From assembly GCF_988243305.1 (NCBI RefSeq), contig NZ_OZ547136.1: DNA of 64,000 bases; one strand, given 5' to 3'. Positions 44,301-49,483 of this stretch are shown here, piece by piece (the stretch's first letter is position 1; each line of letters opens with the position of its first letter). A program made the position numbers.

Positions 44301-47300
44301 ATGGTGAAAATCTCTTCGCTTTTCGGTGCAACCATTTTTACATTGAGCGGGTTCGACTTACCGCCAGCGATTAACTCTGCACTGTTGAAAGAGACGTAAT
44401 AAGGTGTTGGGTTATATACACTCAGGCCAGACTTCCCTTCAGCCCATTTCCATTTCAGGGCTAATGGTGCTTCAGACGGGTTACCGTTTAATCCTGCCGG
44501 ACGATAGAACAGCTTGATACGGGTACGGAAAGCCAGTTGTAACAGGCTCTGATTCTCTACTTTTGAAGCATCTGGTTTTGGGGGCACTTCCAGCACGTTA
44601 AACCAGAATACGCTTTCTTTATCGCTGGGGAGTACGGTACTGCCGGTATACATCAATTTGATGGTTTGACCGCGTTTAGCATCAATACGTGAAACGGGAG
44701 GTGTTGCCGTAAATGGTACATTAATGCTTCCTGGCTCAGCGTTATCGTCACCGGTATCCAGCCAGCTTTGTACTAACAGGTGGCTATTGCCTTTATTCTC
44801 CAGGCGTACGCTAACGCTTTTTTGATCACTTTTATAAATGACGCGTGTACCGGAAATAACAATATCAGCCATAACAGGCATGCTAAATGCCATACTACTG
44901 GCAACACATAATGCGACAATATTCTTTTTATTTAACAAAATATACCATCCATGACATGAATTGTTTTCAAGACAAGGGGGCGACAATAGGTGTCGCACCC
45001 TTGTAGTAATTTAAATCACCAACGAATAACTTAATTGTAGGTGATGGTGTAAGCTGTGTTGGTTCTTACATAACCAGCCGTTGCTGGTGTTGAGTCGTCT
45101 TCACGAACATAGGAGGCTTTGAAGTCAAAGACTGCAACATTATTGGTTAATGCTTTAGTGTAAGCATCAGATGCGTTATTAATTTTGACTTGTTTAACAG
45201 TGGTGCCGTCAATGTTGTGCAGGGCGATATTCACACCAGATGACGGGGTGGTGATGGACATATCGTTATTCAAAGTGCCACGACTGTTACCAAAGAAAAC
45301 TGAACCGAATGTCAGAGTCGGTTGGCCTCCCGGAGTCGCTTTGCTGCAGTCTACAGTAATGCTAAACGGTTTCGCTTTGGCACCGACAGCAGTTTCAGAT
45401 ACACCAGCGGTAATTTCAGCAACCGTTGCAGTTTGCAGAAGAACCAGGCCATCTTGCTTGCCGCCATCAACTTTTGTTTCACAGGTGTTATCGCTAACCA
45501 AGCCACTGATGTTAATCTGACCACCGTCCATATCAGCAGAAGCAGTACCTGCAACCATTGCCAGCATAAGACCAGACAGGGCAAAACCTAATTTTTTAGA
45601 CATAATAATCCTTGAATTATATTCCATGAGTTTAACTACAATCGGGTGCTTTCAGACAAAGAACCCCGATAGAGAAAAATAGATTGGTTTGTTAATGATG
45701 AATGTGAAGATTTACTGAATGTAACATCTGTTCATCACCAAGTGGGATATTGTGCATATTTAAATTTATATATCCACTTAATTCATCTTTAAGTAAAACT
45801 TAATGTACAAAGCGGGAAAAATATTGTATGTGAGGCGGAAGGTGTTAACGGGGTATATAATATTAATTATGGTTGTAGCTTAGGGAATATATTAATTGCA
45901 ATGGGGTAAGGCTATTTTTCGGAATTTATTTATATTCATGAAATCATTAAATCACCATTTGTTTAATTCATGAAATTTATTTATTTTTAATAAATTTCCT
46001 AATACTGTTCCATCAGGAAACACCAGCTCCGGCGCAATTTCAAACAGCGGCCACAGCATAAATCCACGATTCTTCATATCGTAGTGCGGAACGGTCAGGC
46101 GTTCGGTATTTATTACTTCATTACCAAATAGCATGATGTCGAGATCCAGTGTGCGCGGCCCCCAGCGTTCCGCTTTACGGACGCGACCTTGTTGTAACTC
46201 AATACGTTGTGTGTGGTTGAGTAACTCTTCAGGTGCAAGAGAGGTTTCCAGCGCCACGGCTGCGTTTAAGTAATCGGGTTGATCTTGCGGCCCCAGCGGT
46301 GGGGTGCGGTAAAACGAAGAAACGGCAAGAATGTGGCTTTCAGGGATATCGCCTAATGCTTTCAGGGCAGCATTGACCTGCTCCAGCGGAGAGGCCAGAT
46401 TGCTGCCTATGGCAATATACGCCACTGTCATGCGGTACCCTCACGACGCGGTGCGCGTTTGCGTGGACGACGAGAACGGCGACGCGGTGACGGCTCTTCA
46501 TCCAGCTCGTTGAGCATCCCTTTTTGGTCTGGTGGCGCGGAAACCTGGAACTCACCCCACCATTTCACAAGACGCTGCAGTTCAGCGTTACGTTCAACTT
46601 CAGCTCGCAAGGCCAACAGGTCATAAGCCGCACGGAACTTAGGATGCTCCAGCAGTTTCCAGGCGCGTTTACCCTGACGTCGGGACATACGCAACTGCAA
46701 CTGCCAGATATCGCGGGTTAACGTCGTCAGACGTTTCGGGATTGCCAGTGAACGGCAGGCTTCGTCCAGCACGTCGTTCATCGCCAGCGCGAAAGCGTCG
46801 TGATAGGTCAGGCCACTTTCCTGGGCGATCTTCTGTGCTGTCTCCAGCAGTGGGTACCAGAACATGGCGGCAAACAGGAACGCCGGGTTCACGCGCATAT
46901 CGTTATGGATACGCGTGTCGGTATTCTTCAGCACCTGTTCAATGATCCGCTCCATCGGGCTGTCGCCATTTTCCGTGAAGTAGCGGGTAATGGTCGGGAA
47001 CAGCGGCTGGAACAGGTGATATTCACACAGCAGCTTATAGGTTTCGTAACCGTAGCCCGCTTGCAGCAGTTTCAAAGATTCTTCAAACAGACGTGCCGGT
47101 GGAATATCGTTCAGCAGGGTAGCGAGGCGAGGGATCGGTTCTGCGGTTTCAGGACTGATACGCATACCCAATTTGGCGGCAAAACGTACCGCGCGCAGCA
47201 TCCGTACCGGATCTTCACGGTAGCGCGTTTCCGGGTTACCAATCAGACGGATAACGCCGTCTTTCAGATCCTTCATGCCGCCAACGTAATCACGGACGGT

Positions 47301-49483
47301 AAAATCTGCCACGCTGTAATACAGGCTGTTGATAGTGAAATCGCGGCGCTGGGCGTCTTCTTCGATGGAGCCGAAAATGTTGTCGCGCAGCAACATGCCG
47401 TTTTGCCCGCGTTGGGAGGTCGTGCGGTCGCTGATGTTACCTTCGTGGTGTCCACGGAAGGTCGCAACTTCGATAATCTCCGGGCCAAACATCACATGAG
47501 CCAGACGGAAACGGCGACCCACCAGGCGGCAGTTACGGAACAGTTTGCGCACCTGCTCAGGCGTGGCGTTAGTGGTTACGTCAAAATCTTTCGGCTTTTT
47601 GCCAAGTAACAGGTCGCGCACGCCGCCGCCAACCAGCCAGGCTTCGTATCCCGCTTTATTGAGCCTGTACATTACCTTCAGGGCATTTTCACTGATATCT
47701 TTGCGGGAAATAGCATGCTGCTCACGCGGGATCACCGTCACCTGTGGACGGGCGACTGCCTGTTCAGCCTCGCTTTCCTCGCGGCTTAGCACCTTGCGGC
47801 AAAAATTAGCGACTCGGGTAAAAATAGTACACCTCGGTAGTGTCAAACATCATTCAGGACAAAAAAATAGCGGCTAATCATAGCTCAGCATGACGCATTT
47901 GAGAATGTTGAATTTACAATTGCCGACTCAGGCACGGCGGTAAGCCGCCAGTTTTTGACGGCTAACTGAAGGATTTGCTCGACGCTGAAATCCTGCCAGT
48001 GTGCTTCTGCCTGCTGCCCCAGAAATTGAAGTGCCGCGATTAGTACCGGGCGTGGATCGCCTTTTGGCAACGCAGGCGCATGATTCTGCTTGGAAAGTTT
48101 AGCGCCTTGTGGATTAAGCGCCAGCGGAAGATGAATGTAATCTGGCACTTGCCAGCCAAAAAGCTGGTACAGCGAGATTTGCCGCACTGTCGGTTCGATC
48201 AAATCTGCCCCGCGGACAATTTCGCTCACGCCCTGGAAGTGATCATCCACCACCACCGCCAGGTTATAGGCAAACAAACCATCACGGCGATGAATAATAA
48301 AATCTTCCCGTGCCAGTTTTTCGTCGGCGTGAATAATGCCTCGCAGCAGGTCAGTAAACTGGGTGACCGGATGCTGCTGGCGGATACGTACTGCGGCGTT
48401 GTCTGGTCCATGATGCAATTCCCGGCAATGGCCGTCGTAAATACCGCCAATGCTTTGAATACGCGCGCGCGTGCAGGTGCAGTAATAACTTAGTCCTTGC
48501 TCATGTAACCAGGCGAGTGCTTCGCGATAGGCGTCGTGACGTTGCGATTGCCAGAGAACGTCGCCGTCCCAGTGCAGACCGTAATGTTCCAGCTGGCGCA
48601 GGATAGTCTCTGCGGCACCGGGAACTTCACGAGGCGGGTCGATATCTTCAATGCGTACCAGCCAGCGACCTTGCCTAGCGCGAGCCTGTAAATAGCTGCC
48701 AAGCGCGGCAATCAGAGAGCCAAAATGAAGCTCGCCGGAAGGAGAGGGGGCAAAGCGGCCAATATAGTGTGTGTCTGTCATCTCTTTGAACAAAAAATAA
48801 GGCGGGAGCATTTCCCGCCTGTGGTAAACGTGATGGAACGGCTGTAATTAGCCAGCCATCTGTTTTTCGCGAATTTCAGCCAGCGTTTTGCAGTCGATGC
48901 ACAGATCGGCTGTCGGGCGCGCTTCCAGACGGCGAATACCAATTTCAACACCGCAGGATTCGCAGTAGCCGAAATCTTCGTCTTCCACTTTTTTCAGCGT
49001 CTTCTCGATCTTTTTGATCAGCTTACGCTCGCGATCGCGGTTACGCAGTTCGAGGCTGAACTCTTCTTCCTGGGCTGCACGGTCTACCGGGTCCGGGAAG
49101 TTGGCTGCTTCATCCTGCATATGTGTAACGGTGCGATCGACTTCATCCCTGAGTTGATTACGCCATGCTTCCAGAATACGACGGAAGTGCGCCAGCTGGG
49201 CTTCATTCATATACTCTTCGCCCGGCTTCTCCTGATATGGTTCCACCCCAGCGATGGCGAGAATACTCAGGGACGATGTTTTACGGTTTTGCCCTTCTTG
49301 CATGTTGCTTCTCCTTAACACGCACTATCGATCCCCATGTTCGGGGGAAAAATGAGGCCGCTATAAATAGCAGATGCTTTTCCGGATAGCAATTATCTAA
49401 ACGTAACACTTGACAACTGTGTGAGGAAAAGCGTATTTGCGCACGCGACCAGAATGTAAATTAACCAGTTACTTACTCTACTA

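Follow-up and report, generated by a model that had tools for sequence, protein, structure and literature searches.

Probable AUU initiation of pcnB, the poly(A) polymerase I gene, in a 64,000-nucleotide stretch of Escherichia coli DNA

Poly(A) polymerase I (PAP I) is toxic in excess, and its level is held to a few dozen copies per cell. Experimental proof that pcnB starts at AUU in K-12 was reportedly given by Binns and Masters in Molecular Microbiology in 2002 (PMID 12068810), as described in the papers that cite that work. In the literature the AUU start is treated as experimentally confirmed and as a limiter of PAP I, which is also how the initial annotation of the present locus had described E. 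coli pcnB, and in reporter measurements AUU and similar near-cognate codons reach about 1–2% of AUG. The AUU start of pcnB is thus already known, having been published in 2002 and built into both RefSeq and the NCBIfam model.

We analysed pcnB in a stretch of DNA of 64,000 nucleotides, referred to here as the window. In our view the gene is that of E. coli poly(A) polymerase I and is translated from the AUU at 47825-47823 into a protein of 465 aa whose first residue is fMet, with an upstream UUG and a GUG at codon 12 as decoys. We put the probability of this reading at roughly 0.93. The proof that AUU is used and that it limits expression comes from the literature, while the sequence anatomy, the Shine–Dalgarno (SD) energetics, the conservation among species, the annotation practice and the database mis-starts are documented in this analysis. 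The gene and its immediate neighbours are as follows.

46428..47825, minus strand: pcnB coding sequence in use, from the ATT start to the TGA stop, 465 aa, poly(A) polymerase I (RefSeq/PGAP start, K-12 b0143 and NF008634)
45952..46431, minus strand: folK (ORF list; NF007595, 334 bits; RefSeq annotation)
47885..48811, minus strand: gluQ (gluQRS), the upstream neighbour of pcnB (ORF list; NF004312, 622 bits; RefSeq annotation)

The mechanically called open reading frame is longer, running over 46428..47846 on the minus strand and encoding 472 aa; the initial annotation had given exactly this interval, leaving the strand out. This frame scores 996.3 bits against the NCBIfam equivalog NF008634, above the curated cutoff of 702 and hence at the level of a pcnB orthologue. 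The alignment pairs residues 8–471 of the frame with profile positions 1–468 of 469, so that profile position 1 falls on residue 8. That residue is encoded by the ATT, and the proposal that the conserved N-terminus begins at an Ile codon is borne out by the model. The gene order dksA-gluQ-pcnB-folK is the same in the window and in the RefSeq genomes. The folK ATG overlaps the pcnB stop by 4 nt (ATGA, 46428-46431), an overlap which is identical in the RefSeq annotation, and a gap of 59 nt separates gluQ from the pcnB ATT. Among more distant relatives HPPK is found downstream of pcnB and a tRNA-synt_1c gene upstream.

The closest described system is pcnB of K-12 (b0143), which is the same gene in the same dksA-gluQ-pcnB-folK neighbourhood and has the same ATT and GAGGTG. 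Counted from the ATT, the window and K-12 do not differ at any position between −104 and +332. Their proteins match at 463/465 residues, differing by V131I and T451S, and the coding sequences differ at 29 nucleotides, two of which cause those changes. The 100-nt start region is present at ≥99% identity in 5,424/5,426 complete E. coli genomes. Only 17 of these 5,424 are ≥99% identical to the window over the whole gene region, which indicates that the window represents a less-sampled E. coli lineage.

The candidate starts and the elements around them, all in the pcnB frame apart from the Shine–Dalgarno sequence, are listed here.

47823..47825, minus strand: ATT (AUU) initiation codon, by direct reading codon 8 of the mechanical frame
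47830..47835, minus strand: Shine–Dalgarno sequence GAGGTG, separated from the ATT by a 4-nt spacer (TACT)
47844..47846, minus strand: TTG opening the 472-aa mechanical frame; decoy
47850..47852, minus strand: TGA closing the frame above the TTG (translation of the upstream DNA)
47790..47792, minus strand: GTG at codon 12, the start given by ab initio callers for the 454-aa form
47670..47672, minus strand: ATG at codon 52, the start first proposed by Liu & Parkinson 1989 (discussed in PMC2939334)

Directly after the ATT the pcnB protein continues into its conserved N-terminal residues. Taken alone, an Ile codon in frame within the first part of an open reading frame says little about a start, since one is often expected by chance. 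This ATT exceeds chance because the GAGGTG lies 4 nt upstream of it, because both are conserved in 80/80 species and because of the identity with K-12 described above. The GAGGUG stands at a functional spacing from the AUU, and its predicted duplex with the anti-SD (−7.2 kcal/mol) is the best among the candidate starts in the region. The initial annotation had assumed an upstream Met as the alternative start. This codon is in fact the TTG, printed as M by the ORF lister, and there is no in-frame AUG upstream of the pcnB ATT, the frame being closed by the TGA two codons above the TTG. Two nearby ATGs (47853 and 47850) are out of the pcnB frame. They open a mini-ORF (ATGATG...TAA, 47853..47806) that overlaps the pcnB start and that we considered as a possible uORF and rejected; it has no SD, and its ATGs are confined to four Escherichia loci (L003–L005 and L011).

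The species comparison covered 80 Enterobacteriaceae species, with codon-column analyses on 79 or 81 sequences. ATT is present in 80/80 species, as is the GAGGTG with its 4-nt spacer. These data bear directly on a start at the upstream UUG, which would yield the 472-aa protein and make the ATT an internal Ile codon. The UUG is the first ATG, GTG or TTG in the open frame, it is given as the pcnB initiation codon in the introduction of PMC3561954 (the discussion of the same paper calls the start AUU), and the exact 472-aa form is found under NCBI names on at least 1000 public contigs. However, the UUG at −21 has no SD (+0.4 kcal/mol), so that the comparison of ribosome-binding sites suggested in the initial annotation favours the AUU. 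A TTG at −21 occurs in only 26/80 species, and 43/80 lack any in-frame ATG, GTG or TTG in the interval from the closest upstream stop to the ATT; in some species this stop is as near as −15 to −24. Apart from the invariant SD, the 18-nt stretch separating the TTG from the ATT varies in the manner of noncoding DNA, with frame-breaking indels across genera. Furthermore, an internal Ile codon should vary synonymously. Of the 14 invariant Ile columns in the alignment, 13 do vary among ATT, ATC and ATA, and the start ATT is the only one which does not, a sign of purifying selection on its third base beyond that seen at an ordinary Ile codon. The ATT, not the UUG, is where both the curated family model and present-day RefSeq begin. 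We therefore regard initiation at the UUG as highly improbable.

A start at the GUG of codon 12, giving the 454-aa form, is if anything more improbable still. All 79 Enterobacteriaceae sequences in the comparison have this GTG, the exact 454-aa form is carried by at least 1000 public contigs, and this is a typical length from metagenome pipelines, source sequences of the metagenome type being mostly 447–454 aa. Against this, the GUG has no SD at a usable spacing (+0.5 to +1.9 kcal/mol), and all 81 sequences have the same 11 residues ahead of codon 12, the slight codon variation there being purely synonymous. The protein homologue search returned close Enterobacteriaceae only, and beyond these we made spot checks on three loci (L083, L084 and L085). 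At codon 12, L083 has GTA and L084 has GTC, and both retain the arrangement of AUC or AUU with its SD. The called N-termini of distant homologues (45–50% identity) which align over this region correspond to about residues 1–5 of the E. coli protein, not to residue 12.

The AUU reading also holds over a wider range of relatives. Those at 62–67% identity retain GAGGTG, the 4-nt spacer and ATT. A metagenome scan for ATA, ATC or ATG in the same context returned one match, an ATC, with 0 ATG and 0 ATA; the match is L083, a relative at 73% amino-acid identity. In two of the homologues at 45–50% identity the DNA was read, and their starts are GTG and ATG. The AUU marks the beginning of the conserved protein, and no canonical start that could take its place is conserved, GTG-12 being absent from L083 and L084. 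The initial proposal of AUU initiation agrees with this conservation, with the SD, with the RefSeq/PGAP start, with NF008634 and with the literature. A point on the other side is the ATG found in frame at −21 in Salmonella, which makes a longer PcnB form conceivable in that genus. As regards initiation data for pcnB, the text of a Ribo-RET preprint does not mention the gene, and no pcnB entry was found in a Salmonella riboproteogenomics paper and its supplements.

RefSeq K-12 b0143 and the PGAP-annotated best-matching genome both begin the pcnB coding sequence at ATT (465 aa). The expectation that automated callers would mis-start this gene therefore holds for ab initio callers, as the 472-aa and 454-aa forms attest, but not for NCBI PGAP and RefSeq. 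Callers restricted to ATG, GTG and TTG cannot place the pcnB start correctly, and the UUG and GUG-12 are chosen by ORF finders because these three codons are the only ones allowed.

A further proposal is compatible with AUU as the main start. It holds that an N-terminally truncated PAP I is made in addition from an internal start, for example AUG-52, with pS1, a sigma-S promoter within pcnB, supplying the transcripts. This promoter lies downstream of the AUU and is described as active in vitro and in vivo under special conditions, and two anti-PAP I bands are seen on published Western blots (PMC2939334). The AUG-52 is preceded by an SD-like AAGGU (−3.9 kcal/mol), but at a distance of only 0–2 nt, which is too close. 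Of 79 species, 24 encode Met at codon 52 and 55 encode Leu; in relatives farther off the position is occupied by Leu or Ile. The authors of PMC2939334 themselves regard the isoform as unproven and note that pS1 requires unusual conditions. We consider such a second product unlikely. The major pcnB promoter, pB, is placed upstream of the ATT in the literature. A consensus scan found one candidate in that direction.

47877..47905, minus strand: sigma-70 promoter-like sequence TTCTCA-17-TATGAT, within the end of gluQ

This is possibly the published pB; the scan returned 1 site where 0.6 would be expected.

The only possibly useful addition made here to the known AUU start is that the whole initiation region, beyond the AUU itself, is under unusually strong selection at the nucleotide level. 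Two further features are needed to describe it.

47790..47837, minus strand: initiation block ultra-conserved at the nucleotide level, −12 to +36 (per-position conservation)
47815..47836, minus strand: candidate weak hairpin, hypothetical, in which the SD (CG.GGUG) would pair with codons 2–4 (UACCCG) and leave the AUU in a 9-nt loop (MFE and consensus folds)

Within the block 7/12 codons are invariant, compared with 6/258 elsewhere in pcnB (P = 6.4e-8). Only 13/270 eligible codon columns of the gene are invariant in all, even though its fourfold sites are near saturation (median p-distance 0.53). The 5′ ends of the two neighbouring genes served as controls and are not frozen, with 0/4 invariant codons in folK and 0/6 in gluQ.

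RNA structure was considered as a sufficient cause of this conservation and was rejected. Folded by itself, the candidate hairpin has a predicted energy of −4.5 kcal/mol, and in the predicted ensemble the SD is for the most part paired. In the consensus fold this hairpin, which is small and sequesters the SD, is accompanied by a second stem, also small; the number of compensatory pairs is 0. Shuffled sequences fold better than the segment from −45 to +60 does (z = +1.1 for the native segment), and manual inspection indicated that the hairpin pairing is lost in L085. In 10/79 species codon 11 is AAA, which would disrupt the pair that closes the second stem. On synonymous recoding of codons 2–12, which include a rare CGA at codon 4 and two U5 tracts, the native sequence exceeds the average in openness by a modest margin only, and 18% of the recodings are more open. 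Taken together, the shuffling result, the missing compensatory pairs, the loss in L085, the AAA at codon 11 and the modest openness make structure alone insufficient. Only about −11 to +11 is covered by the AUU, its SD and the candidate hairpin together, so that +12 to +36 and −12 are left outside, and a scan of 47600-48000 against Rfam (E ≤ 1) matched no family. The block may be an undescribed cis-regulatory RNA element which sets or modulates AUU initiation, such as a protein or sRNA site or a pair of U-tracts bound by S1 or Hfq, as opposed to a generic constraint on start regions; judged from the sequence, we think the former possible but doubtful.

The AUU start can be placed in a simple mechanism. 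The good SD (GAGGUG with its 4-nt spacer) would position the 30S subunit on pcnB. The third base of the AUU mismatches the initiator tRNA's anticodon, and discrimination by IF3 would then make initiation inefficient, a dependence on IF3 that we infer for the strain of the window. Inefficient initiation would in turn keep PAP I scarce, and the AUU would thus be one layer in the tight control of this enzyme.

With respect to the encoded protein, PAP I belongs to the same family as the class II nucleotidyltransferases (CCA-adding enzymes), sharing PF01743, PF12627 and PF12626, and the PAP I chains in the PDB (structures 3AQK–3AQN) match the pcnB protein at E ~1e-284. The crystallized protein comprises residues 28–442 only and is silent on the N-terminus and the start codon. 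With respect to initiation, the appropriate comparison is with infC, the other AUU-initiated gene of E. coli, which encodes IF3 and lies outside the analysed region. The two genes have in common the AUU and, through discrimination by IF3, a low or tunable output; sequence similarity is not implied. In infC the AUU closes an autoregulatory loop in which IF3 represses its own start, whereas pcnB encodes no initiation factor. The AUU of pcnB would accordingly differ from that of infC in being a throttle, responsive to IF3 at most, and not a feedback loop.

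The ORF listing of the window gives pcnB, the gene for poly(A) polymerase I (PAP I), as a frame of 472 aa at 46428..47846 on the minus strand, a strand that the initial annotation left unstated. On that strand its 5' end reads CCT GAA TGA TGT TTG ACA CTA CCG AGG TGT ACT ATT TTT ACC and continues CGA GTC GCT AAT TTT TGC CGC AAG GTG, with the following features.

47852-47850, minus strand: TGA, in frame, two codons 5' of TTG
47846-47844, minus strand: TTG, first codon of the 472-aa ORF, shown as "M" only by convention of the ORF lister
47835-47830, minus strand: GAGGTG, the Shine-Dalgarno (SD) sequence, four bases 5' of ATT
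47825-47823, minus strand: ATT, codon 8 of the 472-aa ORF

The initial annotation had the conserved N-terminus beginning at an Ile codon, and direct reading bears this out: ATT is codon 8, with GAGGTG four bases ahead. What it took for an upstream Met is a UUG codon; no in-frame ATG lies 5' of the ORF start, and both nearby ATGs (47853 and 47850) are out of frame. The product scores 996 bits against NF008634, the NCBIfam equivalog for PcnB (cutoff 702), and position 1 of that profile aligns with residue 8 of the 472-aa ORF, the ATT codon. The gene is flanked by gluQ upstream and folK downstream. In RefSeq K-12 (b0143, NP_414685.4) and in one PGAP-annotated genome the CDS begins at the same ATT and encodes 465 aa. 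We note an out-of-frame mini-ORF of 15 codons (47806-47853, minus strand; ATG ATG TTT GAC ... CGC TAA) which overlaps both the SD and the AUU. This is probably a chance occurrence, because no SD precedes it and its ATGs are confined to L003-L005 and L011, all four of them Escherichia loci.

The candidate starts were compared by the predicted duplex energy between the region upstream of each and the 3' end of 16S rRNA. The region upstream of AUU gives -7.2 kcal/mol, compared with +0.4 kcal/mol for the UUG 21 nt upstream (-21, counted from the A of ATT). The values for GUG at codon 12 are +0.5 to +1.9 kcal/mol. AUG at codon 52 reaches -3.9 kcal/mol, but its spacer of 0-2 nt is unusable.

One genome per species was scanned, yielding 80 Enterobacteriaceae loci with 86-99% amino-acid identity. 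The homologous codon is ATT, preceded by GAGGTG and a 4-nt spacer, in all 80; TTG is present at -21 in only 26, and in 43 the stretch between ATT and the nearest upstream stop lacks any in-frame ATG, GTG or TTG. In some species that stop lies only 15-24 nt 5' of ATT. Further 5' than -12, alignment shows divergence and indels typical of non-coding DNA. Both Salmonella loci of this set have ATG at -21. In Salmonella enterica (L022, L023 and L088) this in-frame ATG replaces the E. coli TTG and has no SD; the corresponding 472-aa form represents a cluster of 2,921 sequences named PcnB by NCBI, and a longer PAP I is conceivable in this genus.

Synonymous sites point to the same codon. Fourfold sites elsewhere in pcnB are near saturation (median p-distance to the window 0.53), and of the 270 columns in which a degenerate amino acid is invariant only 13 also keep a single codon, seven of them within codons 1-12 (hypergeometric P = 6.4e-8). 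Codon 1 is fixed, unlike the 13 further columns with invariant Ile, each of which varies among ATT, ATC and ATA. Across 81 Enterobacteriaceae sequences the block from -12 to +36 (47790-47837, minus strand) is essentially frozen, including codon 4, which is CGA, a rare codon for Arg. For the first 12 codons at the same loci, invariant columns number 0 of 4 in folK and 0 of 6 in gluQ, and mean synonymous entropy is 0.84 bits in folK, 1.17 in gluQ and 0.17 in pcnB. Synonymous variation is low again across codons 33-45, within which codons 41-43 (CGC AAA GAT; 47697-47705, minus strand) are codon-invariant in 79 sequences; the internal sigma-S promoter pS1 is said to lie approximately in this stretch (PMC2939334).

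A weak candidate hairpin (-4.5 kcal/mol), in which codons 2-4 could base-pair with the SD so that AUU sits in the loop, was considered as the cause of the freeze. It was rejected as a sufficient explanation: it spans only part of the block, shows no covariation and, by inspection, loses its pairing in the distant relative L085. The start region as a whole folds worse than shuffled controls (z = +1.1), and the pcnB initiation region has no match in Rfam. A specific, undescribed regulator site within the block is possible but unsupported. The conservative reading is that the sequence around a weak start codon is finely tuned; He et al. (2017) have argued that such context matters.

The 1.5-kb pcnB region was found in 5,424 of 5,426 complete E. 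coli genomes, and in every one of these 5,424 the 100-nt start region is at least 99% identical. When metagenomes were scanned for the same flanking sequence around ATA, ATC or ATG, only one contig was recovered; it carries ATC, also a weak near-cognate codon, with GTA at codon 12, and comes from an organism with 73% protein identity. GAGGTG, 4 nt and ATT are retained in a 1.08-Mb genome (62% amino-acid identity) and in a 5-Mb genome (67%), the deposited pcnB of which begins at an upstream TTG, another mis-start. In L085 (GCA_014218195.1, CP043324.1; 401-1751) pcnB is frameshifted into calls of 316 and 150 aa, the first mis-started at an upstream TTG; the frameshift marks a pseudogene or else an error in sequencing. 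Homologues with 45-50% identity that align over the N-terminus have called N-termini no more than a few residues away from where AUU lies in E. coli; two of them were read at the DNA level, and their start codons are GTG and ATG. Taken together, SD energies, species, synonymous sites, population and metagenome data and distant relatives exclude UUG and GUG-12 as conserved starts. These sequence tests, which are independent of the literature, support initiation at AUU, as the initial annotation had proposed.

Exact 472-, 465- and 454-aa versions of the window's protein are all public, each on at least 1000 contigs by exact look-up. In the homologue list, NCBI-named entries are mostly 465 aa and some 472 aa, and those from metagenome or SRA assemblies are mostly 447-454 aa. 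The expectation that callers will mis-start pcnB is therefore true of older submissions and of ab initio gene calling, but current RefSeq does not bear it out. The start of gluQ (47885-48811) is also annotated inconsistently, at 308 aa in K-12 and the ORF list versus 298 aa in the PGAP genome; 71 of 79 species conserve the ATG at which the shorter form begins. K-12 MG1655 is identical to the window from -104 to +332, and the two PcnB proteins differ at two residues (V131I and T451S). Only 17 of the 5,424 genomes match the pcnB region (46428-47960) at 99% identity or more, most lying at 95-99%; the window thus represents a relatively under-sampled E. coli lineage.

Upstream of the gene we note one promoter-like element.

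47905..47877, minus strand: sigma-70-like site TTCTCA-17-TATGAT, the -10 element within the final two sense codons of gluQ

It is followed by GC-rich TAGCCGC, and the GAGCTATGAT..GCCGCTATTTTTT motif is present too in L083 and L085 (relatives at 67-73% amino-acid identity). This site may well correspond to pB, the major promoter described in the literature. At the start itself, a good SD at optimal spacing precedes an AUU that selection holds fixed. The SD would recruit the 30S subunit, fMet-tRNA would pair imperfectly with AUU, and IF3 proofreading would reject most of the resulting complexes; pcnB would therefore be transcribed from reasonable promoters and translated sparingly. The pcnB stop and the folK ATG overlap as ATGA (46428-46431), which places folK directly behind this poorly translated gene.

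In reporter measurements AUU gives about 1-2% of the activity of AUG. A cell contains only about 30-50 molecules of PAP I, and overproducing the enzyme is toxic (PMC3561954). The AUU start of pcnB is already known, and reference annotation handles it correctly. Papers citing Binns & Masters (2002) describe translation from this non-canonical codon as limiting PAP I synthesis, and count infC and pcnB as the only two confirmed AUU-initiated genes of E. coli.
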